From: a bacterium
GTDB taxonomy: Bacteria > Patescibacteriota > Microgenomatia > UBA10105 > UBA927
Length of the DNA: 64,000 nt
Direction: 5' to 3'
Assembly: GCA_021817785.1 (NCBI GenBank)
Contig: JAKAFY010000005.1
Coordinates: forward strand, 553 to 64,552
The translations under genes were made by a program, and so were the position numbers. Positions within the stretch are counted from its first letter, which is position 1. The number at the start of each line of letters is the position of its first letter. Shown here in pieces: positions 27,518 through 64,000 of this stretch. The notes beneath the pieces are model-generated. The model worked only from the letters and a program-made list of their open reading frames with translations, was not told where the DNA came from and did no database searches.

Positions 27518-28070
27518 AAAACCAGTTTGTCTAAATTTTTTTGTTTTGTCAATCCCTCAGTTTTTTTGACAGCAGAATACGGGTAATTTATTTCGCCAAT
27601 TATCCCGGGATGGGGGAAGGGTAAGGAATTCTTTACTGAAACAAAAACGTATAGGAAATGCGAATCAGGGATTTTGATGATATAGTTAGCATATGTTTGA
27701 AATGGTCATAAAAACACGTGTTTATGCGCACTTTTTAAAAAATAAAGAACCGATTGCTGAGCTGTACTGATATAGTCGGGGATAGTTGTGAAAACCGCTC
27801 CTTGACAGTGCTTACTAGATATCATCATAGTAATAATACTGCACCTGATGTATGGGGGTTTGGGGACACCGGGTGATTTGTCTTTGAGGCGTGTACTTAT
27901 CTACGATAAACAAAGCAAAGAATACAGTCAATACCCCTGCTTGCCCGCAAGACATTGAACTATCCTCTCATTTGTATCACTTCTTTATAGATCGATATAC
28001 AAATAAATTTCACAACCGTATCGAATCCACTGAAAACGGTTTCGCACAAATCCTGCCGCTCATCCTGCTT

Positions 28071-31000
28071 ATGGTGTTTGCGCTCTCAACGTTTCTGATC
28101 GTCTGGCGGGTGGGCCAGCAGCGGCAGACCGGGGATCTGCGGCAGTTTGCGACGGGAGACGTGTATCAGAATTGTGTCGGGTTAAGCGGACTAGACTTGA
28201 CGATCTGTCAGGAGACAGGCGTGCGGCCAACGCAGCCGCCATATATACCCCCACCAAGTCCGACTAATGCTCCACCAGCCGCAACAAAAACTCCTGATCA
28301 GATTTGTGCCGCACAACCGCAAAACCAACAGGATCAGTGTTATTTGAACCTACGCAAACCCACGGCGACCGCATATGTAGTGCCGCCGCATGTAACATTT
28401 CCCCCTACGCCCATACCAACGGATCGTGTGTGGTGTACGCTACGATGCAAAGGTGACGCGGGCTGCATTTCGGGATGCTCTCTGGGGTTACCATACAGCA
28501 CTCCTGTACCGACGGTTCCCACGAAAGTTCCGACTGTTGTAACCCTCGCTCCCATTCATTCGATTTCCGAGGGGATTGGAAACGGATGTTCTGATCCGAA
28601 ATTAACTGCAGATCAGAGGAGCAAATGTCTAGCTGCTGCAGTGGGCAATATTTCCGTTGCTCCTTCGCCGGTGAGCGGAAACTTCAGCAAATCCTGTCAA
28701 GCCTGTGTGAGTGTGCGCGGATCGGTTGGTGCATGCGCTAGTGCGTGCGGACTTACATCATCGGTGACTCCTGCGCCGTCTCTTATCGCGTCCGTTCCCA
28801 CGCTCAAGGTGACCCCGGCCCCACAGGTCGGAGCCAGGATAGGATTTGGAGTCGGTACAGGGGCATTTACTATTCCTATCGTCACTCAAGCATCAATTGT
28901 CAGCACTGTAATGAATTTGTGGAATCAATATATCAGTCATACTACACCAACGCCGGCTCCTGCTCCTTTAACAGCTACAGGGGGTAATTCGAATGTAAAC
29001 GCCTCTGCTGTGAAACCGACAACGCTCATCCCGGGGTCAGGATGCTCGATACTTCCGTGGGACAGCAATAACTGTAAAAATTGTCCGGGCGGCAAATGGC
29101 ATCCCGGGTGGACGGCATCCTGTGATGCAAACCCCGCGCCTCCGGCAAATCAAAATCTAAGTAACAACGCACCCTCGACCGTGCCGTCTCCTGCGTCCGA
29201 AATAGCACATCCGGTGAATCAATCGCCGGATAATCTGACTATCGTTCCGTCGACTGTTCCGCCGCCCGTTGTGACACCTATTGTCCCTACGGTTCCTCCG
29301 AATCCCGGAACATCGGTGACTCCTGCCGTTACCCCTATTATTACACCCATGCCTGGCGCTGGTCTGGCATGTTCGGGAAGTAATGTGACCGTGGGCAACG
29401 TTGCCGTCGGAGGACAAAAGTACGGTCCGAATGGCGATGTAACACGAAAATGTACATATGACCCAACAACGCACGAAACCGCATGGGTGGAGTGCCCGGG
29501 GTGCAAAGTGACCGTCGGCACGCCGGAAGTCATGGCTGCGTATAAGGCACAAAATGACGCATTTGATGCCCAACTCAATATGCTGACGCAAAACATACTG
29601 AATTGTATGTCGAGCGGCAAAGACCAGGTGACCTGTCAGGCGGAATATTTATACGGACTCGGAAAACAATCCCCGGCATATCTTGGCTTATTGCAGGATC
29701 AGATCTCTGTCCAGATAAAGACAAGCGAAGCGCAGGCCACCTATAACCAAAAAATGGAACAGCATGATTTGTGTATAGCACAGCATCAGGACAGTCCGAA
29801 CCAATGCCGCGGGTATGAACAGGCAGCGCTTATGGCGTTGCAACAGGTGGGATACGACACTACAGACGCAAAAACAATGGCAGCGCTCACAACCGCGTAC
29901 CAGACGTATATAGCTCAAAAGGCATCAAACCTATTCCTAAGTGCGGAGGTTGCATACGCCGGATGTGTGGCACAGCAAAAACAAGATGCCGGTATAAATT
30001 GTTCCCAGTATCAGAAGAACGCAACTGATGCGATGACGTATGGCGGCACGCCTACGGCAGAACAACGGGCCGCGAGATTGCTGCGATATAGTAACTATCA
30101 GAAAGCAACAGATATATGGAATACTCCGAATAGCGTGGTCTGTCCCACAGTAGATTGCGATCCAGAACAAAGAAAACAACAGCGTGTAGCCGCCCTTAAT
30201 ATGGATCCAAACGATGCGCAGTTGGCTCATGATAATTGGTTTGCAAATATTGCCTATAGTTTGCAATACGGCACCGTAGGAACTATCGAAAGGGTGGGGA
30301 AGATTCTGGCGACCAAGCCCTCGGATTGTAAAGATACCGCATCCTGTCTAGATGTTTTGAAAAATACGTTGACGGGTGAGCAGTATGCACAGGTAAAAAC
30401 GCGCGTGGATCAGTTAGCGCTCGCCGATATAAACAATGCGCCTGATACGACTGCACTCTCATTCGCAAAAGATCACAAGAATGACCCCATGTTTAAAAAT
30501 GTGGATACAAATGACATAAACGCCGTACGTTTGGCGATAGATAATTCATTGCCGCAAAATTTGCGACGGGCATCTCTGGCTCACCTAGCTCAGCCTGCGT
30601 CGAGCGGTGGTACAACTGCCGCGTCGACAGAAACACCGCTTGCTAAAGCATATGCGGCTTATCGAAATGATCTATCTCTTGACGCTTCTACACGAACACT
30701 ATTGGGAAAACCCTCTTCAGACCCATCGCTCACCGTCGCAGAAGCAAATTTTTATACGACGCAGCAGAATAATTTGAATACACTCTGTTCGCACGTAAGT
30801 GTTCAGGATTGTGCATTATATTCCGCACAATTTAAGGCAGGAACTATTGTTCCCTCCGATGCTGCCGCAGCGTACCAGAAATCTTCCCTAAGTTTTTCTT
30901 TCCGTATTCCGACATTTTTGACCACATCCCAATCAACAAAAAAAGTAGGCGCTGGAAAATCAGGGACAGTCACCGTGACGACTCCATTATCAAAGGTACA

Positions 31001-52000: not shown

Positions 52001-55000
52001 TACATTTTTAATCTCCATACTCCTGAAGGCGGATCGAAATCAGGAAGTGGTTGACCCGCTATTTGCCGATCTAACGCGACAGATACGACTCTTACTCCCG
52101 TTTGATAAAGAGCCTGATGTACAACTTGCTACCATGCGCATGGTTCTTACGATTCTTCATGGAATCAAAGCCGGGGCGTTTCCGGCAGAGACGCTTGTGC
52201 GGTTTATCGGTGAAGCGGACGCCAATGTAAGTGGCGCATTCCGTGTGTTTGCATCATCCATCAAACAGCCTTCCGTACAGAACGTATTCATGCAGATGTC
52301 TGATGTAGTGGATGAGGCAAGTTCATTCCAGGATGAAATCACCATGCAAATGGCCATGTTATTTGAAATTGTTCGGTCAGGGGATATAGCGCATCTGCCC
52401 AAAGTGGCCACTACATTGCCCTCTGTATTGCAAAAATATCAGACGCGCACAGCAGGAGTGCCCATCGGTGATAACGCAGTAGGCTATGGCGCTGCCATGA
52501 CAAAAATACACACCCAGTTTGGACCAGATACTTTGAGGATGCGGGATGCGTCGCTTGAAATCATGCTCGTTCAAACCAATGAAAAGAAAGAGCGATTGGA
52601 AAACATTATCGATGACATGATCCGCGAATTGGGAGTACAGTCGAATAACCCATCGCAGCGGAAGCGGTATCAGCAGTTGTTCGTGAATATTTTGAGTTTT
52701 ATGTCGAGAAGTGATCAGCGAGCTACAAACCGTTTGAGCGCGAAAATAGCGCACGAAGTTGAGTTGCTTGACCATGCGTTAAACGATACAGTCGAGTCGC
52801 AAAAGATACTTGCGGAGATCGCAGTAGATGCGAAACCATTGCTTCCAACATTGTTTGCTACTCCTGCAGGAAGATCAGAAGTACGGGAAGCAGTGATACA
52901 ACAAACGGTTGATACAGTATTGCGCCGAAGGCTTCCGCTTGCCGCGTCGGATGATGAGGCAACGAAAAAAAATCCAACATATCCCCGATATACATCTGCG
53001 TTGAGAGAGTGGCACAACGCCGCATTGTTGTATATAGAGCATCAACATGGGGCTCCATCAGAAGCTATCGCAGTGCTACATGCGTTTCGGGATGCGGCGC
53101 ATGCAAATATCACAAATCCTCGGGATCGAGCACTTCGATTGATTCGGGAAGCGTATACAAAACGAAATAGTGACCCGGTCATATCTAGTGCCTTGACGCC
53201 GAAAGAACAGGATTTGTTGTTTGGTCATTATCTTTATTATTTATTTAACCAACAGGATCGTATCGCACAGTTCCCGACACTCGATAACGTAATAGGCAGA
53301 GATAATCTGGCGTTTGTGGGGAGTGTACGGAGAGATGATACTACCCAAGCAAACGCATTGGCTGCCAAACTCAAAACATCGCCTCTATTGTTGCAGCTTG
53401 ATAAAGATTTGGGCCCGATCGTCGCGGAATTGCAGGCAATAAAAAGTGCCGACACGACGTCGATATATGCCAACATAAAGTTTGGAATGGAGCAGCACTT
53501 TTCCATGACGGAGCGGTATGACCTCATTGTAAACCTGCTTGATTCGGATCAAGCGATATTTGATACGGCGATCAAATGGTTTACCGATAAAGGATTTGCT
53601 CATGTGAAGGAAGATTTCGGGACATGGGATGGCGGTGGAAGTAGTACGACAAACGCATCAGGTCATTTGGCACAGAATGCTGCTCCGGCGGCAAATGATA
53701 TCAACGCGCAAATTGCGAAGTTTGTGGGTGATATACAGGCCGCAGGGTACCCCGCAAACTATCCCGTGGTACTAAATGGAGTAGTACAGGATAAGTCCGT
53801 TGTTTTGAAGATTGATGTTTCTCGATTACAAGCTCAGCTAGAAAAGATAAGTACGGCGGCCAATCAAAGCTTTGATATTACGATTTCGTTAGGGAATGCT
53901 GAGGTGCTATTTGGAAGTATTGCTCGGTCAGGCGGCGTTACACGAATCAATCCCTACGATCGAAGTGGCGCGCGTACGATATCAAATGTAAGATTCGTGC
54001 TCCGACAACATATACAGTCTTTAGATCTTGCTCTTCGTGATAAGGCGAATGTGGATTTAGCTGTACTCAATAAGGTTTTATACGGTTTTCTTAGTAGTCA
54101 GACCGGCCCGACGGTGACGTTGACGCAGGACCAAGTTCTCCAGCTTATCGATGCCATGCGAAGCGAAATGAATCTTCAGGATGTGCCGGGACCTGTTAAA
54201 TTCGCCCTCGGAGCAGTCGGAATAAACGACAAAAGCATGGCGGCGATGACGATTGAGCCGAAGTTTTCAAACGGTATATGGAGTGTCGCAATACAGTTGG
54301 CAAAATTTAGCTTTACCGCTGAAATTCATACGAGCCAGACATCCGATCAGGGGTTTGAGATAGCGGGCTTACCCGGCGCGCTCACGCGTTTTGTGACGCC
54401 GGCAGAGATGATGCGAAGCATAAACAAACGACTGGCCAGGCACGGCGTTTCACGTCCCATTTCAAAACTTGATATTCAAAAGGATGGGAGTATCGTCGCC
54501 ACGTTTGAAGGGCAACAATCACAGATCCCTCGAGCACAGGGACAAGTACGGACCGGATTTGCCATATCGCTTGGCGTGGCTGCAGCGTATATCCTCAAAA
54601 TTCCGGTTGTGTTGACGGCGGCACACGCGGTACAGTCCATACTTATCGCTGCTGGGCATATCACTATTCCGATTTATTCATGGTTCCCGGATATGCAGCA
54701 TCAGATTTCCGCACTGTTCCAACCAGTGACGCTCCAATACGCTCTTTCTCTCGTAGGTATATCGGGAGCACGACCAGCTCCGTCGAAGGTTCCTGACATA
54801 CTCTCCGGTCCGACGCATACGATGTCTATGGCGGATAAACGCCAGATGCTTTCGCTTATCCCGCAGGGATTCCTCCAGGCGATCGTGACGCAGGTGTTGC
54901 GGAAACCGGGAGCGACATTTGCCAATTTCCGTGCCACGGTAGATCGGTATCGCTTTGTGACCGTGATGTTTGATGACCATCGCCCTGGGTTTGCCGCGTT

Positions 55001-61000: not shown

Positions 61001-64000
61001 TTTGCCTGAACTTCAAGTTATTAATGAACAAACAATGGCCCGATGGGACGCGTTTTTGCAGCGCCTTCGCTCTCTGTGGCAGGGGATGAGGCTAGGAGAA
61101 ACACAGACGAGCACGGTAAAAGTAGATATTCAGAGTCCAGTAAGCGCATTATCAGCAAGTGTTTTTAGTTTGGCGAGGCTTACTACTGTTCCTTCTGATG
61201 CGACGCTATTGGCGAGTCCAAACTTTTTATCAACATTTCGTAACGATATACAAATAGAAGGATGGCCAGGAGATAGCTGGAAAGAAGCATTACGTCGGAC
61301 ATTGGCGCCGACGCGGTATAGAAATATACCATCCACACAATTGCCAGACTCACTTATTACTTATACATTACGTTCCTACGGAAGAGCAGATTTTGTTATA
61401 CCAACAGCGCCTCTCATTGATGAAAAAGGTATTCAGTTTCCTGTAATTCAACGGAAAGGGATCGGAGCGGCTCAAGGTAATATACAAATTTCCTCAGATG
61501 CATTTGGTGCCCCCGTGGAGAAACGACAGGACGTAACAACATACGGATTTACTGGTCAAATGTCATTTCAAGAGGATGCTCAAGTAACAAAGGAATGGGA
61601 AGACGTCGGGATGCGAGTCCGCAAGCCAATCGCGGCATTCGATTTAAATCAGGTATTTGCTCGATCGGTTACATCAGGGAAGGGAAGTGGAGCTTTGACT
61701 CCGGAATTGTTACAAAAAGAGGGGTTTGATATATACGGAAATCCTGTTATTGCGCTTTGGGCGAGACGGAATCCATATACCTTTCAGGATTTTATAGGAT
61801 TGACTGATGATATGCGTCGGCTTCCATCGCACCCGACTCAGCTTTCCAAAGACGCCCTCAGAGAGCGTTTGGATCAGTTTTTGCAAATCCAGGCATCATT
61901 TTTGCAATATGATTCTGATCCTGAAGCACGGAGGATTGCCTCATTACTGGCTCGGGGAAATGGAAGCGGACTTAACGAATGGATGAAATGGTTATCATCT
62001 AGATACGGAGAGCAGGAAGGGAACAAAGTTCTCCATGGGTTGGTTGATGGCGAACAACATCGTCAAAACAGAGATTTTGGAGTAGAGTATACCGATTTAG
62101 CTGATTTAGCACATCACAACTACGGATCATACGAACAAGCTCCGCGGATGGAGCAGGCCGAATTGGCGAAAGAGGTCATGTTTACATATTTGCCTATCGT
62201 AGAAGTGCAGGTCGCATTTAATCTAGCAAACAATAAACCATGGGATACAGATTTGGATACGGTAAACTCAAATTTTTTCCGCAACTTTTTTGCAGTGATC
62301 GATACTAAACCCGATGTGGCTAAAAGTGTCTCTCAATATTTTAAATTAGAGCCTATGTCTGAGTACATCGGGGGGAGTGGTCTGTACGGCATAAGTGATA
62401 GCTATTTTGTAAACGATTCGACACCTCCGGTTGTTGTAGGTGTGCCATTGAATATTGTGAGCGCTTTAGAGGAGAAATTGTATATGCAAACTATAACAAT
62501 AAATACGCTCAATTCTCTCAAAATACTGCCCTCCGAGTTTCTAACTAGAGTGTTATATAAGTCAATTTATGCGATATTTTCTATTGGCACGCATGGTTAT
62601 ATAGGGGTGATCCGTTTAGCTGATAGATTCCAATCGCAGAGTGGGAATATAGGACAAAAGTTATATAGTGCGTTTTTTCCGAATGGGAGGAATAGATACA
62701 CAGCGGATGCAAGACGGTATATACAAACATTAGGATCAACGCAGGCAGTCATTCGATTTGTCGTCGCCTCTCTTTCATCTTCAGATAACAATCAATTTAC
62801 AAACATGCCGTACAGGGCTATAGAATCTAACTTTCAGTATCTATTAGCAGTTAACGTTCGTGAACAATTGCATATACCAGAAGATAGTTATGACTCATAC
62901 CCCATTGCTGCCGAGGTTATGCGACTTACTGGAATTAATACACTCATAAATCAAATATACGAAGCGATTCCAGAACAAAGACCTGTTATTTTACGCGCCT
63001 GGCAACATGCATCTCAAGATCCTTGGTGGCAACCAGCCGTAGTCGGAGCAGAACGATTCTGGCAGAGTATTTTGAATTCAATAAACGATCAGTCATTACG
63101 GAGCACAAATAAACAAGTGATGGCAGTCGGGGAAATGACCGACCGTATCTTCGGCTTTTTCCGCTCTCTGTGGCAGGGGATAGTAAACCATTTCATGCCG
63201 GAACAGCAAGCCCCGTTTACCCAAAGAAGACCGCAATTTGTAAAACAATTGATTGAACAACAATATGCCATTGTTGTACGTCCTCCAGTGTTTGGTATAC
63301 ATAAATATCCACTTGAAGGGAAACCGCAATATCAGTTCAAACATTTTACGAGTACCGATGTTATCAAGTTAAAGCTTCAAGATGCCTCTGGTATTGTGAA
63401 AATTACGGATTTAGGTACTGCAGATGCTTCATTTTTATACGAAACATCTCGCGTCTGGAAAGATCGCGTGTTTGTAACAGGAATTTCTGCCTATAATTAT
63501 TCTCCAGTAGGCTTGCCGTCTCGTAATACACGGTATATAAGTGGCGAAGAAGCACAAATGGAGACGCTTTCCCAGCGCAATACGATAGCACACGGATCGC
63601 AAGACGTTATATTTGCTAAAAATACATTAAATTATGCCGTCGATCCACTGGGCACATTGTCTGAACTGTTTGAATTATTGAAACCAGGAGGTTTTATCGT
63701 TGTTGATAATTCATTTCCACCGACTACTATTTCCGGTCTTACTTCACAGCAGTATGGCGGCATGATCGCGTGGATGAATATGCACGGATATCGTATAGTT
63801 TCAAATTGGTCTTATGATCCTGTAAGCCGAACCAATCAAGTTAATAGTTTTATACTCCGAAAAACAACAGAGCAACCCCACTTGTCTTGGCCGCTCCAGT
63901 ATGGGCAACAGAGATTGGCACCTAATTCTTCAGTATCTATTTCATATGTCATTGATCCAAATATTCCGATTTTGCATAGTCAATCGATCTTTGATGGGAT
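28071..64000 (+). CDS. giant multidomain protein, N-terminal >=11,976 codons (3'-partial; ORF runs off the window)
   Basis: Frame (position mod 3 = 0) is open from the TGA at 27885-27887 to position 64000. The first ATG is at 28071 (MVFALSTFLIVW...). In-frame alternative starts are GTG 27891 and TTG 27972. Frame continuity was checked by hand at 35280, 45900, 52140, 60000 and 63960. No + strand frame-0 ORF appears in the supplied track, which is consistent with a single unterminated ORF. All minus-strand ORFs across these 36 kb are short. The domain-like motifs are listed separately in the findings. Confidence 0.85.
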   Translation, partial: MVFALSTFLIVWRVGQQRQTGDLRQFATGDVYQNCVGLSGLDLTICQETGVRPTQPPYIPPPSPTNAPPAATKTPDQICAAQPQNQQDQCYLNLRKPTATAYVVPPHVTFPPTPIPTDRVWCTLRCKGDAGCISGCSLGLPYSTPVPTVPTKVPTVVTLAPIHSISEGIGNGCSDPKLTADQRSKCLAAAVGNISVAPSPVSGNFSKSCQACVSVRGSVGACASACGLTSSVTPAPSLIASVPTLKVTPAPQVGARIGFGVGTGAFTIPIVTQASIVSTVMNLWNQYISHTTPTPAPAPLTATGGNSNVNASAVKPTTLIPGSGCSILPWDSNNCKNCPGGKWHPGWTASCDANPAPPANQNLSNNAPSTVPSPASEIAHPVNQSPDNLTIVPSTVPPPVVTPIVPTVPPNPGTSVTPAVTPIITPMPGAGLACSGSNVTVGNVAVGGQKYGPNGDVTRKCTYDPTTHETAWVECPGCKVTVGTPEVMAAYKAQNDAFDAQLNMLTQNILNCMSSGKDQVTCQAEYLYGLGKQSPAYLGLLQDQISVQIKTSEAQATYNQKMEQHDLCIAQHQDSPNQCRGYEQAALMALQQVGYDTTDAKTMAALTTAYQTYIAQKASNLFLSAEVAYAGCVAQQKQDAGINCSQYQKNATDAMTYGGTPTAEQRAARLLRYSNYQKATDIWNTPNSVVCPTVDCDPEQRKQQRVAALNMDPNDAQLAHDNWFANIAYSLQYGTVGTIERVGKILATKPSDCKDTASCLDVLKNTLTGEQYAQVKTRVDQLALADINNAPDTTALSFAKDHKNDPMFKNVDTNDINAVRLAIDNSLPQNLRRASLAHLAQPASSGGTTAASTETPLAKAYAAYRNDLSLDASTRTLLGKPSSDPSLTVAEANFYTTQQNNLNTLCSHVSVQDCALYSAQFKAGTIVPSDAAAAYQKSSLSFSFRIPTFLTTSQSTKKVGAGKSGTVTVTTPLSKVQTGSIDINIAPVQWMDSAFNWIQRQQIALTPFRPGDYAQKNTEAQLVLLATDPAKQKAVFAALDQTADYRKFAASLHASNVDPHEAYITQQLTKFYQNEGYLQNAGKFAPTTVDNSKQDYVTLVMRGDVNVSSAVSSIGLGKMVGGVYANTLTAVGDTVLSPILKLTHLTPTIKVANLVSGGVTPEENQTADTVVTALIRTNSAAWDAYVQQKSKDPEYLAWAQNNPKDSSIVAFAKWQYAQSLALTENMKAGGYELSSAQDLFTKSPTWLTDGVLAGKINIGDIKSILSASQQSVTTDLNRNLTILETNNTNLPTSSYQARRQAAFAQLQTSVLNAQADALVKVYQESQNTPEVLAALQSKLTAQHITTDPLVYQQQQLKAYLLNPDTTFLLGSGGTTVDVAGIMDGTYDMAAASRAYNDLNKRPLESFVFAINKFEKGSYLQGQQLLSDPNSSLYDKGRAVVMMTAKPVGTVLMLAAPPLRVLQIGVNAVTAADVLAIGGEALGFQMTGSSAADTAVACTLRPGMDAAGCATNFGMMVFAGWSTLSSVNAVNSIAETAMIKSGQNVGFVERFMNSNKLLSGLVPDGDKALIQAAALRNGVIPATADNIAALESAVAKAYAPVAHNAFAEGARNALGTAVFGSAAIQACSQEGLNADCLSRASLAFLSLSRTILPSQVVSNTNALAGQTVMRADQLTNAALAGLSCSAAALGKGSLDDCITTAMMSGMTFAGEAVQKAQSSSNGLTLKNPFAAKELAIKDLSLLENMKATDPPIIMDGTPVNFLDRTVAADSVRARLVQATIESRIIIAQGSALAAGFKTLPAADQTIAQHAAVTAGDAWNSLFTDTGALRPGVADQVMGARQALTIASSELARETALLTDPRNGAQQAVDRLLGVRSKDAAALADFHTAREAYLELARSAEYDPATGVLRNGETLAIAEQRLARAGETLSLVNASRGEIWYATHLNQTRDALAVINRQIDIETLQQQLLLDQAKLPDVRRLAREQADAAQIHLRTLEQTNASPEVRAIAQEALRLATERLSAAEDVATHIQNPADIALYRTERANALSTLQARAETIQGEMTLLAAGQKAAQTFGGRLAIAVLGLPDQPTPFAELIGRTPEQIVQARTTAITEVGKRSLSNIEDLVNETIDVMRASSDGTITRERAIEIAMDELSATDAKGNTKIYTDALAQAKEALMKQGITNETTLARESMRIARTVADQFVANNEAIRAALAKGESPDVAFAIRQSTASKVSTAIVNFIEQNTVGRIKVYQIRQENKAMLSQLRVALKAEYKPLVEKLANINNDRGGISLSQETKPGANDALIAYDTHKSVKPGKLVVDDIKLTDTGRKAGLTEKDVTFLKDNLQSIQGVQGYTAHTEQVDYILAFLESLGDGNARRIYGAVMGLGKTDFVMPATTLLQAQLSDQTQVIVFPEDKLMNQYLGGNSQKMLDLFKAKIDPKGEGLVLVVDPSKPPSAEAIAKAKVIITTRDIAFLLDATDASGLAMRAKWRGAFIQSDEGHWTLNATESFRTSFGKQTQIMQTDSGKMKRVAIASVEQLQSVRELIDLAKTGKLTDAEVRRNADKTGSFTDPTEQEILREWLQKKKNAGQLPPALEAALQAGSVADMRAKITEFFDTNASARTGPLGAEISVIGKLADLFAATPKVEYGAASFDRNGTLVDMIAPLDMTKATGRMYQGELEQLLYNTIGAEIVGKNIDLTNLVSNSQSRDINFGLLMLEASGFAIYTGTPELIAPLYKSAYGIDLTQYGLNAHEVVTKQINTGLASQQSQVFQSTDDALTNRLHKGEPVAIVNLRDTLYRTNESAFETIQRHLDTGDRLYVAKAAGGFEEYVRLADGSMQRVAVYTDKTGINASIANHITEPIVVMYEFGAHTGVDVSLPDNTRELVLTDTNSRINETVFDQGVKRVRPDTALVDVVHVGGDGTIESVYRQLDVQQRQDMALAEVQFKETLLRNSVDQLLSRLNAVQTTTAGGITQGVDYAARLKALQDQWQVTKDLSYDLSTHNISAQDKLQRTLDQVKSMYGEIYASIQSDVTLRAAFAVSAGDTKDLAINLQPDPKGVHKLSAVSSLADVVTYINKSTDPKVIADAGVTFTERGPSAEAVTADARNVQPTNIIADGDAITAETIAAENQARQDALAKNSGNGNNPTLPGSGPQTPGGSGPVQPGGAGGGPANNGGGGTTNTGGGGGTTQSNGGGSTQNTGSVNTGSNTTGPTTVSQMTSQARQAVIRAAVDTSGTQPVVRAGISPQQTLQALAAATIEAQNLRNNPFSRIRILPIARTLERQEQAELALADALQGPVQAAIEQELGVTLSGSGLPAIASARDSAVSYLAALAIGDADVAQSHLTDLNKAIENVAAAQGSAYTGRQTADIAPHIVAAFLPPSAVTAKPIIQTISGQINTNTVSNPSTWRATIGIMWSGIKHYGFNPNPLTLFTIFGSTTNRWDVLGQVGGWIMFRIAPLFVPGGQFVAVPLLAYDGVRLITYPFRALARFIFTRPMIRDIVIGKSVAQLALRWHLNQTMLNILAGSRNGFFESYVNAVPGWPKGTTFFKGLIGTFTWASRFQAMWGYDAFRLLRRYTQQINHIADTDMPLHQLPVTQPNYWDTNGFLLGFVPRALVNATPRNNLFGYLLTRWLVPIVITSLVAPLLMLIPVVGPYIAVMVVAIIISMPHSYDSHRLWHEGGWQHADIWNTKKGHITPWASWGATVTITVPAPQQFSKGVLEAGHTLVRGATITVTRRDGSVETAILDTVSNDRIAANNSWTIRSAADNSVIGWVTQGDITVNMSPAIASQPVVPIPSGGLSAADIDAFAEALTGPQVQTLFQREIAFLPLGCSECTDFVKQSINTHLAAAQQKIVAGDLAGAIAQLDQALHEIDMHVKNHTGGPVNTMLFNLVRYVILRHQAALYTALGDTKHAADVMAIARSYRVKALIEIDTKIHAYNAGDTRFEAINDALSYYTAQREKDFSDILLMQDANQAQQALDDLTAEISNRPTNPTLWDRVTAMAARILVKQPDPLAGYATEIANANAHIAARRNPPVRHEARVGDTYRFAPSAYPANVNALTGASIGGDTTSKILIPGLGLGLYASFDNGRWQLHHQDRFKSGVFINTTPVPVNKQGPLSSGDTIVIGDVRLVVTIDSDNSLMIHIEQLVSGQPAQHPVVHKNDTQHFAANDFTTPDQVVTLGINIYSTIRFDPGQAPSIQPHHAHVFRNSGSWIITSADTQATGTIRRPDGSEYPLQGLTGLHDGDILYLGSDVVITVNVDPTTHDLTLLETTIGDSVEVARNKTEARAKLQAIIDLGKNPAGYDNAKLSAYVSDLQTVADGLAQADQAVFGTNTTALSGQLHQAALELGQLVVGYHTRVYNNNAPFFDFSRVQQMEDDVNTIPELTKEEKAQVWDGFEKTVYRDYIGSVYGSIAGMETEMYGSSHSLPPSDLDSMSLADLQREKTMAEGTFAVTNDAYKEFLRDKNRFETNRKAIQAKARAMADAMNTAFAKGQMTKNIRVEVSQEGIIQLIPADNSPLLSLRIGLDTPQEYISDQRDDGAVHIILGTTGLSVAPAILNIESRNVGSGVGNEALSIIETVVKRAGFGGMLVQGNTSVLSFGFWSTNEYWVADTKQNLDELQRYSRARQMYKIFGKALPKPTQEVSRREQINRLQAQIFGWLALARSINMSSDELRTSMSPDDLQKLVIGKTNIYIAGALVPDGLPLAWQEPIILALTDLEAGVPPLGMYDTSVRVLNRPEVHNALIQLIGAIKAQTDGGGEYLKALGEAIVAGANNPKEMAKLLNNLTSYWTTPAKILKDSSLPGRQQFIDTYGPVIAKGESGNQFADALYTHYSALKSEEQDALAALFADDGTMRTPVAHAIQTLKPSYAQKRREDSLTVAARDALLPEIKTLHAFTFLSDDEIKNEIPTDITNQVVEGAYVMDTNVSGELSALAPQQQAVVRNGFDVRADIVRDAWAKSDISPFGALFDTNVLFSSLVSQIADLHEADAVSQFRAALSAFPSDLYASMRARDTVNKPDAYQIQAEIHAKYVAATIRGKISSSFPMQEQRLLAFLNNGLLENNNHPPFPNLESLLKYLLIGDVPSDQQFDEASLRERVASMDTGVTGPLMDTLAKAIQQMLPLLDGIVARSEPLPAVNIAPGTTTTTHVALLRAMHDYNDNAPRSMRFTPASDFTLRPIEDQVNEFLTFVENRTGQWTRQTSPREGKVGVANTFNGMTFAEGKAPLIIGTSKSNTIWFDSAVAKSVAEKHAEIYLELHSDSPNKLWIRAVSDTTPITIFDHRGEKLRTQSGAVLGDGYTIQLGSDVVLSVKYDNYSYQFTLTPTKVGEAITADALDQLLAKLIPGYDTQKLPPEQVTAIRKAVYGLVPAGAAAESLDAALKQPAVQEFLTTLQTNINALTKAQLPNVQAIIGNVQTDYQTVLARLPIFIRVLGSVNIADVNNVTIALTSMNAAIQVAETNPQLSALAVASSDRNSFVEDQSVINLLRGIILNAFGTHAIIVSELSPDTYSSLVTSLGEYVWSLAVKTPSLDGFWDADRGAILIQKALDEKDNRTPVLPEFVELTNQAVGSDKVLYMEVYAEEILTNREILYFLDLARTRILAQQQKLEKYNADWRRLQLAAEQDPAIKIGKELEKLYPLESNALMMQSAGGSLQLDEANRAISYITGVPIEEVQKGNYPKGTKPDLTPEVIRSRLVAHGDYDHVLSETEIGRLMIAEDEKDHYDIMRTRTPRFAPVGGTLDQNPLVNLLFGLTGKRYRIPADNAALTEEDVVVAFERNYDFLVQDYALPTLISSSGKPDVYFNALMVVAQENGVEVKLVSDPSNPQPQARGLFHGTPTNKTIYIPTLDSNSNRELAHELVHALQFIKHPGMSRLMREFEAYLISDYPKNRVPKVGYLRKFLQIIADTVGPTYVAVGQPIPWEFQPVDVSNSAPEGSDISTPVALDQLLAKLIPGYDKLKKDQQTAVRKTIYGLVPGISFGENIDDALQQPAVQEFLTTLQTNIGALTKAQLPNVQEIIGNVQTDYQTVLARLPIYALVMSSANVTDVPKALIAAQKAIDEVEHSPHLSVGAQTAASASVFTDDMKFSVTENVMRASLGSQGYTGTAEDIALIHQQYGISDDELNTLITALWTYVWNRESREIQIRDQLNSILSDASPEFKALPEFERDDIIEALRISYPDNTTLAAVATDFSESGKRAKELHALVTLLAQKTSINDYVLTSIMLHTPQNPETWSTLYDTSIKVSALLEQVSESNRQDQSKQAYQVLLQAIKLIGNDQTVWSVMQREADRFINVIAILAAKRSGGITPKDAQALYTALRIPVAQKTKYDGLLNKSDLSVLGAPEADSKWAAFDALAVVYFRKVPEAPSEDPRVQEIRGLYGRFVRSLSTVQGVYVIKMSSEWAAVLSLLKGGSIVYVPNGALDTKFEPKAVVDAATFQSGIREAVDYMNFPSKEAYARAKITVWILDKMLSVEQYYASKNTLSVLQQKSGELGQIDQQISALLRTDLSSGTTQESLQQIYAALYALLPADSGFPADDTSEIDALISSINTFGQPKEVRQVVTHLATTFGIPDEQIKQVVDQVVANLKDSTAAGTVPAWKAIEDALNAKPKFAKDVLPLIKNQFAALQKAQADVSRIQALLTIYARTLISIPLGKIAEAPTVLSQEQKAIAALEESSSGWVSDATTIDEFLADNTRTGTTNEVRIQTGLKDTKILQPKDDKTPNAFGISLTNYTRIVSDIGQYLWKKGEDVRTKAILAMVEPYDAQRDASYISRIEQAAKTNGLQIKVVGYIAKGAQGYVYLVQLLNAKQVNIPEYVAAKADDLAQKLGVNDAPHEYELAGKLRQAEQTGEFDISDPSKLYTVDPYAVDAKNKVLFEELVLTQKWDDESQDAKISRAMQFGHRTYLVRQAGFYNQDKIGDYLADINNKLHFFDSSSYGTNPKLALDANSRFITRIVEALYPASGATVENIFSAQFTNDTNRLNVLLQSRLFVSLPKIIQYNILLLLGKISSNSGQNLNSAAAFKELLLDMLSVTANNHIDSKFIPAELHGEYQQQAIIHRFSRFDNENILGMAGITIEQGANAEDKLLISNIVQSPSLNLIYSWHDFNVGVPYEKYYAGIFINLTTQEKIDHIIGLDLSQFDLSPEDYAVMRVIQWHAQYVRYGFMMTGHPDVNNASAMNPSESAVAQQLRTYGVIKVLKKMGSRMELEAAQGHQQAVDKELLPSMRAFQDAFVQNIFGGDKRKLNKQDFPLTPEQVKKDIDSYVPNTANTVSTQLTALISDATPLKTDEQKAQIKAVVDATLAEMDAVTLPQDISALKPAISVIYGDGTSLVQLPDFLKRLPVFIRELVAATPKEMEKLLIGTNTAVTAMKNFPIGFNNPAGTTEDAFVKDVKNRTFVRDMLVDGHLYPANYSGIPITDAIIEQIHTDYGLTSTEFDGVVTAILHYLYTPTEEGGTESILGASLISQFGITADADKQAVQNSLRDGLTGVTLSGPLVTALSDPKSAPSQFTGTVIKELRADGATAPAISRILPTILWVYDHAAADKKPLVATTLIPKINEVDAANAIMWKTFVDGNATEQYFIDTGSVVVGTSFDTVLSSLLPDQAADAHSKVVNAYLRYARIKHGSRVTTELQSFLGYVTQPEHVPMPPTAPQVFKDMQKTVEESPSQTTAYEVQAINQLASLYRTDLTVKRTGGAEGKAPMVEVNGKELLPIAGHMYRYIYKLDDTHVLKFDMGGQNESELELEALNDNVRAVSPILGWGIASDGSVFLIEEYSDVVISQSDNTQLRGDIQGIIELWNSAYVNSSVAEQQAFLHEYGLQSADEINQLEQIVKVDEQIHLDDFAMASQNKPESGQIGRGRISHRLQLIDFGQNSVRSGYAPYLRSFTHLQEIVDKIVADRKSGSVGGEVSALATQAWDAKNEAWVDAAIEALSHEGFTDWNGLLVSYFRAYRGPKDEMLTPKQVEDAVNHYEPTFLISILLKADRNQEVVDPLFADLTRQIRLLLPFDKEPDVQLATMRMVLTILHGIKAGAFPAETLVRFIGEADANVSGAFRVFASSIKQPSVQNVFMQMSDVVDEASSFQDEITMQMAMLFEIVRSGDIAHLPKVATTLPSVLQKYQTRTAGVPIGDNAVGYGAAMTKIHTQFGPDTLRMRDASLEIMLVQTNEKKERLENIIDDMIRELGVQSNNPSQRKRYQQLFVNILSFMSRSDQRATNRLSAKIAHEVELLDHALNDTVESQKILAEIAVDAKPLLPTLFATPAGRSEVREAVIQQTVDTVLRRRLPLAASDDEATKKNPTYPRYTSALREWHNAALLYIEHQHGAPSEAIAVLHAFRDAAHANITNPRDRALRLIREAYTKRNSDPVISSALTPKEQDLLFGHYLYYLFNQQDRIAQFPTLDNVIGRDNLAFVGSVRRDDTTQANALAAKLKTSPLLLQLDKDLGPIVAELQAIKSADTTSIYANIKFGMEQHFSMTERYDLIVNLLDSDQAIFDTAIKWFTDKGFAHVKEDFGTWDGGGSSTTNASGHLAQNAAPAANDINAQIAKFVGDIQAAGYPANYPVVLNGVVQDKSVVLKIDVSRLQAQLEKISTAANQSFDITISLGNAEVLFGSIARSGGVTRINPYDRSGARTISNVRFVLRQHIQSLDLALRDKANVDLAVLNKVLYGFLSSQTGPTVTLTQDQVLQLIDAMRSEMNLQDVPGPVKFALGAVGINDKSMAAMTIEPKFSNGIWSVAIQLAKFSFTAEIHTSQTSDQGFEIAGLPGALTRFVTPAEMMRSINKRLARHGVSRPISKLDIQKDGSIVATFEGQQSQIPRAQGQVRTGFAISLGVAAAYILKIPVVLTAAHAVQSILIAAGHITIPIYSWFPDMQHQISALFQPVTLQYALSLVGISGARPAPSKVPDILSGPTHTMSMADKRQMLSLIPQGFLQAIVTQVLRKPGATFANFRATVDRYRFVTVMFDDHRPGFAALQQNVAKGKIDAAVLRQFRMILTERILNAFMAHTGNMMMTPKTPLYQYVFISMAQNRSTFLRSLREFIESNAAGEVIQQTLREYKLDGILPYRRTGDYLGFFVGGDPTQPLVLENVDGKLVQHTPSSPDISDTVNAAPLGVEIEQAISMDPITLRAWQDTDSLPIYIVNAPQGPGVVSVISDKKGGIPISVRPLAVQDIIGPDEPAPIVTVASLTGDEIATLSSLAPDTYITLTDLGAHLSRADLDRMARGETIYLHGALHSVVQMSQEMKEEGGVVHQVTAVDLSPFSLISKVLSNLPDAVNLQSGFQDVLSYWYKLVVAEFRSVGLHAGLFGGDGMQAIGKLDSLDQLVAYMDFEKLFEQALRDAKDGKISPNAAAAAAVILDPKNGIAGNILVKVGFVQTEGTLRILQGSTEFIFDENPDDILATRKKFQPVAGESYDSIVALNAAAAKDIQERFGNKFASRGLKIIQQGQNYFLVRQKEAQKITVSETPVVIPQRHASWWQRIMDQGRRVIGGVWNFIKTEALRFAVSSEKGRLVISVPGSSKLPKGFENLKTVENRIHQTAPASYRATIDAHWTEIMTAIFSEEKRYRNGDDRGLINAIKNALWKFTDSKDDTETVQFLANVVQDYRGQTVGSSQTQTKQSAPQAVKAQPQASTTLAKPIVTIRNIGRKYMPNKLAGKYHHDNQDAVPESVKWHGNLFQLAADGVTRDENGGISKESGVIASQAVRWLHNELLYLSDSTANIFAKIKRVLDDANANMLYRPAGALATVAFTYVDSSNGAVYGAQVGDATSYAISLDTNEIYLLTDTKVLKKGKPYDGQRVYSVLKDGQTLSSVQGDEVESAFGDNSVLTSIRKNTLPFGKYVIITGSDQVTKLLEPYLVKRSVPNSDLQRFEATGKLKDELYSFLRILPGAKKTILDILSEFQDATGSQDDLSVTADEVEIRMPSASSTLRYGFDVQMPQLQEAYPETVKWWKDRIAAVRNFVSHAWNTWGYSPRVVALGEDLDAARKTYAKKTIVDAMVGEVRIDGDMLYASGFRPTNGLYGTTDTPVLWMIKLTPSQQKLFSGLSQEERHTRVVQMIHNATEVIVDQHGFQADRRVFAEPMQHIMAPYGVAGINQVAVAPTLGGGEGSFSGKTSYLYETMKAQFADFFTGLAGVVNVDGVRFRFIGHSTGADIVASLLHDRPNYVKPGTDFLLVSPYVETFEKQIIAFHYAPNDVVWGPLYQFVNTRYENVFVSAFQRFLIVAARLTGLDRIIIDTRLSGLAGDPAVADAASVHGIYQQAIEAAMRWYNDVLTQKPKLVLDQTVEELRARGVEITTVASFDGGDHIVNQQETEFFAEEHNIPMKNFPNSGHYLRSEDWQVLGDAYNHSSDIQEYVVKTLLTTAKDVTVAQWEVGDKSLLQKCAANGCTTVAAVNALPNGRDFQPELVFGHRDAVSKDGYVFVARVMILGKPYVIDFMAEPGKVVILPWDMYQKMYAFTPYESPDLVPSFGFPVDQEADLARKFWPELKSRHTLSLTTLTSLDPNVTAAKAMTFEQGVKVWFAAAVADTETPLIQEEVQPSQSDWIAALEEPECWAMAPVAYAQGPSGGGKPCSVQVRAALKALPALGIGSVVNVWHYSKQFVGWAGQLWQGIFRLLSQNDGGYAAPINQIKAVTGVIRSVGTTGAMHSALDQVSQIIDPIEREFPFPNEEIKQYTDADYRSMFGGTRKQFIAAFNDLTQTLLRVARTDSNEEVRRRSTIILSSMQQVRYTFGMTAQTYTRYNFDEWYGALDNDMLRLLRLLTGLWVTRGQEKVLAQKMLTDHEVLRKKYNLPADDLYELNPTEYANSLESLRQKYDISVTSMRERDFNAIFTPGDEEHAAGGATLPNGSIVLKDRIMNTWRTDPTSMHLYEHELIHAIQKKLYPGLSHEEQEYEAYVAERYLIHELQLSQDKGLELFMRGFQTSIIALYARQGKTPPWASIIIPRDIEFLEPEQMLKDIEAEFPSQRYQFDRPNLPELQVINEQTMARWDAFLQRLRSLWQGMRLGETQTSTVKVDIQSPVSALSASVFSLARLTTVPSDATLLASPNFLSTFRNDIQIEGWPGDSWKEALRRTLAPTRYRNIPSTQLPDSLITYTLRSYGRADFVIPTAPLIDEKGIQFPVIQRKGIGAAQGNIQISSDAFGAPVEKRQDVTTYGFTGQMSFQEDAQVTKEWEDVGMRVRKPIAAFDLNQVFARSVTSGKGSGALTPELLQKEGFDIYGNPVIALWARRNPYTFQDFIGLTDDMRRLPSHPTQLSKDALRERLDQFLQIQASFLQYDSDPEARRIASLLARGNGSGLNEWMKWLSSRYGEQEGNKVLHGLVDGEQHRQNRDFGVEYTDLADLAHHNYGSYEQAPRMEQAELAKEVMFTYLPIVEVQVAFNLANNKPWDTDLDTVNSNFFRNFFAVIDTKPDVAKSVSQYFKLEPMSEYIGGSGLYGISDSYFVNDSTPPVVVGVPLNIVSALEEKLYMQTITINTLNSLKILPSEFLTRVLYKSIYAIFSIGTHGYIGVIRLADRFQSQSGNIGQKLYSAFFPNGRNRYTADARRYIQTLGSTQAVIRFVVASLSSSDNNQFTNMPYRAIESNFQYLLAVNVREQLHIPEDSYDSYPIAAEVMRLTGINTLINQIYEAIPEQRPVILRAWQHASQDPWWQPAVVGAERFWQSILNSINDQSLRSTNKQVMAVGEMTDRIFGFFRSLWQGIVNHFMPEQQAPFTQRRPQFVKQLIEQQYAIVVRPPVFGIHKYPLEGKPQYQFKHFTSTDVIKLKLQDASGIVKITDLGTADASFLYETSRVWKDRVFVTGISAYNYSPVGLPSRNTRYISGEEAQMETLSQRNTIAHGSQDVIFAKNTLNYAVDPLGTLSELFELLKPGGFIVVDNSFPPTTISGLTSQQYGGMIAWMNMHGYRIVSNWSYDPVSRTNQVNSFILRKTTEQPHLSWPLQYGQQRLAPNSSVSISYVIDPNIPILHSQSIFDG
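44082..44366 (+). repeat. intragenic duplicated module, copy 1 (~285 bp)
   Basis: Encodes ALDQLLAKLIPGYDTQKL...AVQEFLTTLQTNINALTKAQLPNVQAIIGNVQTDYQTVLARLPIF. The core 44233-44366 is about 90% nt-identical to 46051-46190. Confidence 0.85.
45909..46190 (+). repeat. intragenic duplicated module, copy 2 (~282 bp)
   Basis: Encodes ALDQLLAKLIPGYDKLKK...AVQEFLTTLQTNIGALTKAQLPNVQEIIGNVQTDYQTVLARLPIY. It includes the 25/25 identical run ccgcggtgcaggaattcttaaccac. Confidence 0.85.

Follow-up and report, generated by a model that had tools for sequence, protein, structure and literature searches.

A 39-kb gene for a fast-evolving giant protein with a predicted SecA-like ATPase in Candidatus Gottesmanbacteria

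The DNA considered here (the window) is a stretch of 64,000 nucleotides (nt) from contig JAKAFY010000005.1 of the bacterial assembly GCA_021817785.1 (positions 553 to 64,552, forward strand), and its downstream part is occupied by one giant open reading frame (ORF) that runs off the end. The gene order is the end of a 23S rRNA gene, 5S rRNA, ribosomal protein S1, RadA, glycosyltransferases, a PMT_2-type membrane glycosyltransferase, two large membrane proteins, an amine oxidase, DUF2298, Rho, a LysM/M23 peptidase, two tRNA-Ala genes and the giant ORF. This content of rRNA, S1, RadA, Rho and tRNA genes argues that the locus is chromosomal. A prophage or mobile-element origin of the giant gene was rejected on the same grounds, since the locus is chromosomal and syntenic beside Rho and the rRNA and tRNA genes. 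Judged by the closest relatives of its Rho protein among 185,579 species genomes, which are metagenome-assembled genomes (MAGs) of Candidatus Gottesmanbacteria and other Microgenomates/Patescibacteria, the organism is a Candidatus Gottesmanbacteria, within the Patescibacteria or Candidate Phyla Radiation (CPR), a group of ultra-small cells with genomes of ~1.2 Mb. A first-pass annotation of this DNA had named a LysM/M23 cell-wall hydrolase and a surface-glycosylation cluster as the immediate neighbours of the giant gene; both do lie upstream, but Rho and the two tRNA-Ala genes also stand between the glycosylation cluster and the giant gene.

27891..64000, plus strand, running off the window: giant coding sequence, about 92% of a gene of ~39.4 kb with a probable GTG start, for a protein of ~13,124 amino acids (aa) and ~1.4 MDa

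Residue numbers below are those of the plus-strand frame, in which residue 2 is the GTG at 27891. The frame (27888-64000) contains no stop in 12,037 codons (36,113 nt) and is preceded by a TGA at 27885-27887, so that the first-pass annotation was right to describe one stop-free frame of at least 36 kb reaching the window edge. Elsewhere in the window no frame stays free of stops for more than 2,295 nt, and the five remaining frames across the span of the giant frame are, as that annotation also held, broken into short ORFs, with 362-642 stops apiece. The probability of such an open frame arising by chance is ~1e-279 on a base-composition estimate. Codon usage correlates with that of 13 upstream genes in all 12 consecutive 3-kb segments (r 0.45-0.77) for the giant frame only, the off-frames giving 0.15 at most. 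Nor is the product low-complexity filler, again as first described: its composition is ordinary (A 10.6, L 9.1, T 7.3 and Q 6.0%), and Tandem Repeats Finder detected no array within the giant gene.

Other assemblies of the same locus were located by exact look-up of the neighbouring LysM/M23 and Rho proteins. On contig k141_2559337 (73.6 kb) of ENA assembly ERZ27237541, the giant gene does not touch either contig end and is annotated in full, at 13,064 aa. In two NCBI MAGs the frame stays open up to the contig end, over 11,621 aa in GCA_027424485.1 (a 52-kb contig) and 5,952 aa in GCA_021842445.1. The expectation that the true gene is larger than the window is thereby borne out, and the possibility of an assembly artefact, which had been flagged for checking, is countered by the same frame being open in three independent assemblies. 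Over 21.1 kb GCA_021842445.1 matches the window at 100% identity, and the ENA contig does so at 99.97% over the 11.3 kb compared, with 3 mismatches and no indel. The ENA gene call runs from ATG 28071 to a stop near 67265, ~3.3 kb past the window, and the window thus holds all but the final ~1,090 aa of the giant protein.

These results bear on the view that the frame is not a gene at all, being instead the outcome of chimeric assembly, chance, pseudogene decay or sequencing errors that joined several genes. The reliance on metagenome assemblies speaks for such an artefact, but the frame statistics, the in-frame codon usage throughout, the agreement of the three assemblies and the complete orthologues of 13.6-15.7k aa in four other genomes (see below) leave it exceedingly improbable, and in effect refute it. 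The giant frame is one intact chromosomal gene of ~39.4 kb, encoding ~13,100 aa.

The gene probably starts at GTG 27891, 60 codons upstream of the public call. ATG 28071 was rejected as the start, because it would cut a first transmembrane segment (TM1, residues 55-73) and because homology reaches upstream of it, similarity to orthologues beginning at about residue 15. In addition, a GTG, TTG or ATG sits 26-30 codons upstream of a conserved HFFID motif in every orthologue checked. TTG 27972 was also discarded as a candidate, since half of the orthologues have CTG there. Across the clade, GTG or TTG in place of ATG is apparently the usual start of the giant gene.

Two conserved elements precede this start:

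27802..27837, plus strand: giant-gene promoter, with -35 TTGACA at 27802-27807, a spacer of 17-18 nt and then the block TCATCATAGTAATAAT
27842..27877, plus strand: conserved 5' leader, with box 1 CACCUGAUG at 27842-27850 and box 2 GGUUUGGGGACACCGGGUGAU at 27857-27877, predicted to pair

The promoter scores 10/12 in a consensus scan. Its TTGACA and the CATAGTA core of TCATCATAGTAATAAT are invariant in 15 orthologous upstream regions (alignment A4), and the remainder of the block is mostly at least 90% conserved in the same alignment. At the level of sequence, the giant gene is thus shown to have a conserved promoter of its own. In the leader, RNAalifold on 13 sequences predicts a 9-bp helix between CACCUGAUG and CAYCGGGUG of box 2, with one compensatory pair (GC-to-AU). 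The insert between the boxes varies from 0 to 45 nt and is itself a hairpin in five orthologues. No Rfam family matches the leader. The predicted helix might mask a ribosome-binding element. Box 2 includes the sequence GGUGAU, which is complementary to the 3' tail of 16S rRNA. Reading the leader as a small upstream coding frame was rejected, since it is interrupted by stops at differing places among orthologues.

Orthologues of the giant gene were sought through Rho, which served to fetch 80 species-representative loci. In 16 of these a long open frame begins ~2 kb past Rho and is still open where the fetched DNA ends, and 13 of the 16 frames are homologous to residues ~15-2190 of the window protein. 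Complete orthologues were found via Rho orthologues on long contigs of four other genomes, from JGI, Logan and NCBI assemblies, with lengths of 13,555, 15,708, 14,528 and 14,187 aa. The first of these lies on a 1.218-Mb contig (GCA_023245335.1, JAHFKK010000001.1), of which the gene makes up ~3.3%, and all four occupy the slot DUF2298-Rho-LysM/M23-tRNA-giant gene. Full orthologues are also held by JGI contigs 3300014198 Ga0181608_100048 and 3300013771 Ga0119904_10000075. No Pfam hits are on record for any of the four. Sequence comparison was confined to the first ~2,700 aa or less of each Gottesmanbacteria orthologue. Measured against three orthologous loci, the giant protein is only 29-32% identical, rising to 38-47% in a short N-terminal anchor alone, whereas eight neighbouring genes are 50-85% identical between the window and the same three loci. 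By this comparison at a single shared locus, the giant gene is fixed in position and size and yet is evolving unusually fast.

More distant relatives were found by searching with the region of the ATPase motor described below (residues 2330-3130). Against 1.84 billion representative proteins, HMMER returned 17 matches in all, 12 of them with E < 1e-30; apart from the short fragments P0008 and P0010, these 12 are 1,427-6,637 aa long. No ordinary helicase or SecA is among the 17. One relative, P0005, is a complete family member of 4,647 aa. BLASTP similarity to the relatives is confined to residues ~1467-3190, and phmmer with residues 3150-12037 in 300-aa pieces found nothing at E < 0.05 in the relatives or in the N-terminal parts of the orthologues. 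Since the relatives match only residues ~1467-3190 and nothing downstream, the alignments show a very small and very divergent family, with a conserved N-terminal core of ~3,200-3,600 aa and a lineage-specific, non-repetitive C-terminal array, as far as homology searches can delimit the two. Other approaches returned less. A word-indexed homologue search with the last 1,200 aa and with residues 1050-2100 gave no match, not even to the protein itself; we attribute this null to the index, which copes poorly with giant divergent proteins, and not to a lack of relatives, since HMMER did find some. Pattern scans of genome and metagenome collections, made with single chunks of the protein, gave no relatives.

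The N-terminal part of the protein contains the following:

27891..28049, plus strand: N-terminal tail (residues 2-54) with the conserved motif HFFID(C/R)Y, presumed cytoplasmic from the family topology
28050..28106, plus strand: TM1 signal-anchor (residues 55-73), ILPLILLMVFALSTFLIVW, Kyte-Doolittle (KD) hydropathy 2.63
28113..32378, plus strand: putative ectodomain (residues 76-1497), with Pro/Thr-rich linkers, 34 Cys in close pairs and helical segments
32382..32498, plus strand: second hydrophobic stretch, candidate TM2 (residues 1499-1537), KD ~1.5
32505..33257, plus strand: conserved helical module with three invariant Cys pairs (1558/1569, 1687/1696 and 1744/1757)
33285..35027, plus strand: A/Q/L/E/R-rich region (residues 1800-2380), presumably helical or coiled-coil, the helicity being read by eye from the sequence

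HFFID(C/R)Y is conserved in the 16 Gottesmanbacteria orthologues examined, all of which bear this N-terminus; the motif was not found in loci L015, L018 and L011. An N-terminal transmembrane segment is also present in relatives P0001, P0004, P0005, P0006 and P0011. The ectodomain is ~29-31% identical to that of the orthologues, is flanked in all relatives by TM1 and the second hydrophobic stretch, and matches nothing in Pfam or the PDB. At the position equivalent to TM2, eight relatives, each with one N-terminal transmembrane segment, have a KD of at least 1.6 over 21-43 aa, always ~900 aa upstream of Walker A, and none of the eight has a comparable hydrophobic stretch after it. The six Cys of the helical module are invariant in 15 orthologues (alignment A2, covering the conserved region at residues 1050-1850), and a local hidden Markov model (HMM) finds the module in P0001, P0003, P0005, P0007 and P0013. 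Neither Pfam nor the PDB has a match to this module as aligned in A2, and the AlphaFold2 model of the conserved helical region (alignment A3) had a predicted local distance difference test (pLDDT) score of 41 and was unusable. The A/Q/L/E/R-rich region is homologous to orthologues and to P0001, P0002, P0007 and P0009.

The membrane-spanning segments of the first-pass annotation were recovered as hydrophobic stretches at residues 55-73, ~1499-1537 (weaker), 3686-3729 and 8891-8930. By Kyte-Doolittle hydropathy, these four regions would amount to ~4-7 transmembrane helices. At a KD threshold of 1.6 there are 6 segments, compared with ~20 in shuffled sequence, which argues that the giant protein is mostly soluble in character. 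We infer a topology in which the N-terminus is inside, TM1 leads to the ectodomain, TM2 leads back and the remainder stays inside, since this is the only arrangement that keeps the ATPase cytoplasmic.

Within residues 96-1757 lie 41 of the 47 Cys of the window protein, nearly all in close pairs, and the 10,237 residues from 1801 to 12037 have 6, also paired (0.059%, where 15 neighbouring ORFs have 0.80%; binomial P = 9e-28). Ten relatives are divided likewise, with 0.6-3.4% Cys before Walker A and 0-0.26% after it. The paired Cys and the Pro/Thr linkers mark residues 76-1497 as putatively extracellular and disulfide-bonded. Autotransporter passengers, type I secretion system substrates and exported proteins of monoderm bacteria typically have few Cys other than those in close pairs. 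The Cys-poor remainder of the giant protein appears to bear the signature of polypeptides that cross a membrane unfolded.

The ATPase module lies downstream of the A/Q/L/E/R-rich region:

35028..37457, plus strand: SecA-like superfamily 2 (SF2) ATPase module (residues 2381-3190), with Walker A, Walker B, an insertion, TGTPE, GAHTGVD, QGxxRxR and a long helix
35223-35237, plus strand: Walker A, GLGKT
35559-35570, plus strand: Walker B, DEGH

The module has the Walker A, Walker B and arginine-finger motifs of two RecA-like nucleotide-binding domains (NBDs). In alignment A1, which joins residues 2381-3190 of the window protein with eight relatives, the conserved motifs have invariant key residues: the K of GxGKT, the DE, the TGTPE-type motif, GAHTGVD and QGxxRxR. 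Pfam ResIII matches five of nine family members and DEAD one of nine (E 2e-10). SecA_DEAD (PF07517) has no match in the window protein or nine family members at E up to 0.5, and similarity to SecA is visible at the level of the fold only. AlphaFold2 on A1 gave a model with pLDDT 76 and a predicted template modelling score of 0.76. When this model was compared with the PDB by Foldseek, the top 13 ranks went to SecA or SecA2 entries (E 5.6e-14 to 6.5e-8), with alignments spanning the entire chain, and the ranks that followed were the helicases MDA5, XPD and DinG. The motifs in common with SecA and SecA2 are GxGKT, DExx, a TGT-type motif III, Gxx(T)GxD and QGxxRxR; an insertion is present where the PPXD sits in SecA, and in the model a long helix comes after the second RecA domain. 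The insertion, of ~210 aa between motifs II and III (A1 residues ~190-400), includes a beta-hairpin, and in the predicted model a 45-residue helix (605-649) is followed by helical bundles. A two-helix finger was not identified in this model. A profile comparison by hhalign with E. coli SecA, whose sequence had been checked against PDB entry 6s0k (1,844 bits), gave one weak match (E 0.04, probability 1.3%) that is collinear; the block ATGRxYxSxxEQLLYNxxGAxI...YTGTPE aligns to SecA ...GMTGTA, which is the end of the PPXD and the return into NBD1. The module is quite probably an SF2 ATPase with SecA-like architecture that sequence models do not recognise as SecA. There are no sec genes within the window.

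A stop-free stretch of 954 nt lies on the minus strand opposite the SecA-like region (35285-36241). It was rejected as a gene, its length being about the chance expectation for the low stop density of that frame.

Beyond the motor, the remainder of the window encodes a long array with few recognisable parts:

37485..37757, plus strand: low-complexity G/T/N/S-rich linker (residues ~3200-3290), read from the translation
38205..39074, plus strand: Trp/Phe/Gly-rich membrane-associated region (residues 3440-3685), then a hydrophobic hairpin (residues 3686-3729, at 38943-39074), KD 2.62
40155..40922, plus strand: two FHA-like modules (residues 4090-4345)
43758..44135, plus strand: third FHA-like module (residues 5291-5416)
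44082..44648, plus strand: duplicated helical module, copy 1 (residues 5399-5587), with copy 2 at 45909-46490 (residues 6008-6201) and copy 3 at 50004-50423 (residues 7373-7512)
45414..45884, plus strand: HExxH module 1 (residues 5843-5999, HELVH at residue 5922), with a paralogue at 60420-60938 (residues 10845-11017, HELIH at residue 10936)
54558..54677, plus strand: hydrophobic segment of one or two transmembrane helices (residues 8891-8930), KD 2.08
63408..63710, plus strand: class-I S-adenosylmethionine (SAM) methyltransferase-like segment (residues ~11841-11941)

There are 15 Trp in residues 3501-4000. The first-pass annotation had described catalytic-looking motifs, and these fared unevenly. 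Pfam FHA (PF00498) matches residues 4090-4345 in two stretches, at 27.8 bits against a cut-off of 20.7. The methyltransferase segment is matched by four related Pfam families (E 2e-4 to 2e-3) and is marginal, Methyltransf_11 scoring 21.1 against a cut-off of 21.2 and Methyltransf_31, _12 and _23 falling below their own cut-offs. The P-loop and DEGH motifs belong to the SF2 ATPase with its SecA-like predicted fold. The HExxH motifs, a PP2C-like series read by eye at residues ~9700-9995, a GHSTG nucleophile-elbow-like motif (GxSxG, as of alpha/beta hydrolases) at residue ~10211 and kinase-like motifs have no HMM or PDB support: Pfam gave nothing beyond noise on the excised segments at E up to 5, and NCBIfam, PADLOC and PDB phmmer gave nothing. 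A metallopeptidase role for the HExxH modules is, for this reason, suggested by the motif only. Overall, the searches of Pfam (fifteen 1,000-aa tiles and ten excised motif segments), NCBIfam, PADLOC and the PDB (phmmer) yielded essentially FHA, the marginal methyltransferase and sub-threshold ResIII/DEAD, and PDB profile searches with alignments A1 and A2 yielded essentially nothing. Over 95% of the giant protein is thus without a match to a known family, which would make it a large reservoir of undescribed folds. The presence of an FHA domain beside an ATPase and membrane segments recurs in secretion machines such as EssC, YscD and TagH.

The internal duplications that had been claimed were confirmed as four dispersed pairs by self-BLASTP. 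Residues 4242-4411 resemble 5291-5451, and the third FHA-like module, which Pfam does not detect directly, is a paralogue of residues 4242-4372 (E 2e-8). Copies 1 and 2 of the helical module are 50% identical (E 1e-49), and copies 2 and 3 ~24% (E 2e-5). The two HExxH modules are paralogous (E 8e-6) and hold the only HExxH motifs in the 12,037 aa. Along the gene, GC content in a 1-kb profile forms kb-scale blocks of 0.41-0.55, with 0.41 at 48.9-49.9 kb and 0.53-0.55 at 57.9-59.9 kb; in the last 4 kb of the window GC is 0.41-0.44, GC at third codon positions is 0.35 and the codon-usage match is weaker. This GC mosaic may reflect modules that differ in origin or age. The tails of the relatives differ in turn. 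P0001 has, by eye, an ILAGSR(N/D)G motif and an FHA domain after the motor, as in the window protein; Pfam places FHA (E 1.5e-12) at the equivalent post-motor position and adds GGDEF in the tail. The whole of P0005 and the tail of P0011 have no match in Pfam. By eye, the tails among P0001-P0013 include GGDEF, HD, metallophosphatase, histidine-kinase-like ATPase and ParB-like segments, almost none of them detected by Pfam.

This inventory bears on two explanations that would account for the size of the protein in familiar terms. A megasynthase of the nonribosomal peptide synthetase or polyketide synthase type has size alone to recommend it. Pfam and NCBIfam find no condensation, adenylation, ketosynthase, acyltransferase or carrier-protein domain, which are normally easy to detect, and there is no modular repetition; the idea carries almost no probability and is refuted by the absence of these domains. 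The second explanation is a classical giant surface adhesin or fibre of the SiiE, Ebh, LapA or Vampirococcus type, whose length spans the gap to a partner cell. It would fit the N-terminal anchor with its Pro/Thr/Cys-rich extracellular region and the nearby cell-wall and glycosylation genes, and the giant proteins of CPR predators have been so interpreted (PMC8080830). However, such adhesins (SiiE, Ebh, LapA/BapA and the 36,806-aa protein of Chlorobium chlorochromatii), which share with the giant protein its size and the probable surface location of a part, are built from tens to hundreds of tandem repeats, whereas tandem repeats are absent from the DNA of the giant gene, whose internal duplications are four in number and weak. 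The searches detected no domain of the Ig, cadherin, beta-helix, dockerin or lectin type, and an ATPase with intact catalytic motifs is present. An adhesin of this kind is very unlikely.

A surface or cell-cell role of some kind, with which the first-pass annotation had found the neighbourhood compatible, is nonetheless plausible for the giant protein from its paired-Cys, Pro/Thr-rich ectodomain, its exclusion of Cys elsewhere and its fast divergence. The reading that we favour, with a probability of roughly 0.45, is that of a host-interface machine with a surface ectodomain and a SecA-like motor that helps to export its own chain. In this model, a short cytoplasmic tail would be followed by TM1, an ectodomain of ~1,400 aa that is Pro/Thr-rich and disulfide-stabilised, and a second hydrophobic segment leading back to the cytoplasm. 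A helical stalk, the SecA-like SF2 ATPase, membrane hairpins and ~9,000 residues with FHA and enzyme-like motifs would then follow. The ectodomain would be displayed on the cell surface, perhaps glycosylated by the PMT/GT-C-type enzymes encoded syntenically upstream in every orthologous locus. The LysM/M23 hydrolase may aid passage through the wall, or may attack the wall of a partner. The motor, tethered by TM2 and the downstream hairpins, would use ATP to thread parts of the nearly Cys-free downstream chain, in unfolded form, across a membrane. The whole protein would be a fast-evolving interface for contact with and exploitation of a host cell, and so the counterpart in CPR bacteria of the SecA-domain "giant genes" that predatory or episymbiotic Omnitrophota carry.

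Several points weigh against this model. Modules that depend on ATP or SAM would be useless outside the cell unless they were delivered into another cell. The topology is derived from hydropathy alone, with TM2 weak in the window protein; the invariant Cys pairs at 1558-1757, if they are disulfides, fall on the side modelled as cytoplasmic; and the motor itself is within the Cys-poor region. The main rival is a cytoplasmic, membrane-tethered mega-scaffold, a fusion of regulatory and enzymatic modules such as FHA, phosphatase- or kinase-like and methyltransferase ones, of which only the N-terminal ~1,500 aa would be outside and in which the ATPase would be a remodelling or nucleic-acid motor. 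Such a scaffold suits the intracellular character of the recognisable domains. It leaves unexplained, however, both the near-total exclusion of Cys over 10,000 aa family-wide and a divergence 2-2.5 times that of all neighbours, and Foldseek favours SecA over helicases (E 6e-14 versus 7e-8). We consider the scaffold unlikely, although it deserves to be kept in view.

A more radical alternative is multi-effector delivery resembling that of MARTX toxins, in which the core would dock on and penetrate the host envelope, the motor would feed the enzyme array into the host cytoplasm, where ATP and SAM are available, and the HExxH modules would cut the array. Polymorphic toxins likewise join a conserved core to a tail that is hypervariable and specific to the lineage, and the exclusion of Cys fits, as do the cofactor-dependent enzyme-like motifs in a region that looks exported. 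Differences among the tails of relatives, such as the FHA and GGDEF of P0001, point the same way, and the kb-scale GC mosaic of the tail (0.41-0.55) is compatible with module exchange. On the other hand, no toxin, immunity, pore-forming or autoprocessing domain was found in any library searched, the HExxH, PP2C and kinase readings are motifs only, and no immunity gene was seen in the window, which ends inside the giant gene. CPR bacteria are not known to possess any route by which proteins could be translocated into a host. The resemblance to MARTX and polymorphic toxins, namely a conserved delivery region before a variable module array and scarce Cys in the translocated part, is a functional analogy only; RTX-type repeats, a cysteine protease domain, Rhs/YD, LXG, known toxin domains and a visible immunity gene are all lacking here. 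Multi-effector delivery is rather improbable.

The boldest version would make the protein a self-propelled effector injector of an episymbiotic CPR bacterium. Its Cys-rich core would grip the host envelope, the motor would thread, in cis, an unfolded, Cys-free chain of ~10,000 aa from a 0.2-um cell into the host, the HExxH modules would cut effectors free, and lineages would swap tail modules. If this were true, it would constitute a principle of protein delivery distinct from the known types of secretion system, and the tail would be a set of FHA-guided phospho-signalling modules, a methyltransferase and hydrolases engaged in an arms race with hosts. It is at present a speculative and improbable extension.

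The favoured model, a host-interface machine with a self-exporting motor, can be set beside the giant proteins already described. The statement that genes of this size are extremely rare in bacteria was too strong, since proteins of at least 10,000 aa are now known in thousands from metagenomes, mainly from Omnitrophota (bioRxiv 10.1101/2023.11.21.568195; 10.64898/2026.06.07.730766), with 3,650 counted in a 2026 survey. West-Roberts et al. call genes "large" when the product exceeds 10,000 aa and "giant" when it reaches 30,000 aa or more, and CPR is not named among the phyla that they list as rich in such genes (bioRxiv 10.1101/2023.11.21.568195). By this scheme the present gene, at 13-16k aa with its orthologues, belongs to the "large" class and not to the "giant" one. 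The Omnitrophota proteins have transmembrane regions and divergent SecA_DEAD domains, and self-export has been proposed for them (10.1101/2023.11.21.568195). In V. archaeovorus, peptides of a giant ORF were threefold up in attached cells (PMC10066038). The giant CPR proteins described so far reach ~4,200 aa at most, those of Vampirococcus lugosii up to 4,163 aa (PMC8080830), and full-text literature searches found nothing that ties Gottesmanbacteria or Microgenomates to giant genes.

There are strong parallels with the large and giant genes of Omnitrophota, such as the "Archaeovorin" and dockerin types (10.1101/2023.11.21.568195; PMC10066038; 10.64898/2026.06.07.730766). Both occur in ultra-small bacteria with reduced genomes, as single ORFs that exceed 10,000 aa, are poorly conserved and offer few domains that can be annotated. 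Membrane anchoring, an embedded SecA-like ATPase, scattered content of methyltransferase, peptidase or phosphatase type, and cell-wall genes nearby are further likenesses. No sequence homology to the described Omnitrophota proteins was found, however; the HMMER search with the motor region gave its 17 family proteins and none longer than 6,637 aa. The present gene is in Patescibacteria and is strictly syntenic beside Rho, and Pfam SecA_DEAD is undetectable here. A long scaffold-like helix is apparently present in the predicted module, whereas the Omnitrophota versions are said to lack one; the ~4-7 transmembrane helices indicated by hydropathy compare with the ~22 reported as the mean for proteins that reach 10,000 aa; and there is no dockerin, glycoside hydrolase or C39 domain. 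Vampirococcus lugosii with its giant proteins (PMC8080830) and Nanohaloarchaeota with their long ORFs (cited in PMC10066038) are likewise tiny, host-dependent cells that devote a large share of a small genome to very long proteins of the membrane or surface, to which a part in host contact is ascribed. These proteins are at least three times shorter and carry WD40, PKD, integrin and fibronectin domains, of which the present protein has none, having instead a motor ATPase. From such comparisons, the features that would set it apart from the known theme are the different phylum, the lack of a sequence link, the few transmembrane helices, the absence of adhesion and carbohydrate-active domains, the strict synteny and the family-wide partition of Cys.

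At one fixed locus, behind a conserved promoter and leader, Gottesmanbacteria retain a gene of 13,000-16,000 codons that takes up ~3% of the genome and whose sequence diverges far faster than that of its neighbours, and the retention of so costly a gene argues for a central function that is probably host-facing. CPR bacteria account for a sizeable fraction of bacterial diversity. Their genomes measure ~1 Mb, attachment to other cells is their presumed way of life, and how they recognise and exploit hosts is poorly understood. The combination of a giant gene with a SecA-like motor would be extended from Omnitrophota to an unrelated ultra-small phylum, which suggests either convergence or an ancient shared solution. 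The orthologues form a compact syntenic set that can be compared across genomes, and the family-wide split between Cys-rich and Cys-free parts gives a simple, testable prediction of which parts cross the membrane.

The remaining features of the locus lie upstream of the giant gene:

14318-23570: glycosylation block, with PMT_2/PMT-like membrane glycosyltransferases, two membrane proteins of ~580 aa without a Pfam match, a flavin amine oxidase and DUF2298
23772-25571: Rho, 599 aa, with an N-terminal extension of ~200 aa that is far less conserved than the core
25577-25656: 16-nt tandem repeat AGAGCTTAGGAAGACC, five perfect copies, between Rho and LysM/M23
25820..26920, plus strand: gene for two LysM domains and peptidase M23 (Pfam M23 1e-32, LysM 3e-23), in the same position in 5/5 orthologous loci
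27302..27517, minus strand: 71-aa ORF with a single transmembrane helix, divergent from the giant gene

The glycosylation block is directly upstream in all orthologous loci, and this conserved synteny suggests a functional link to the giant protein, for example through glycosylation of the Pro/Thr-rich ectodomain. The 71-aa ORF is 74-83% identical in orthologous loci, where it is called as a gene, and a minus-strand gene for 98 aa occupies its slot in the Logan locus; its product could be a partner or regulator of the giant protein. The N-terminus of the 71-aa product is basic and rich in His and Lys, and it precedes the one transmembrane helix. Many Rho relatives align only from residue ~160-210 onward. 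A tmRNA called by ARAGORN at 26944-27118 was rejected as a false positive, since it overlaps a tRNA-Ala(CGC) and Rfam finds the tRNA only. The region of AGAGCTTAGGAAGACC is 32 nt shorter in the ENA assembly of the same population (3 copies), and the copy number of this repeat is therefore polymorphic.

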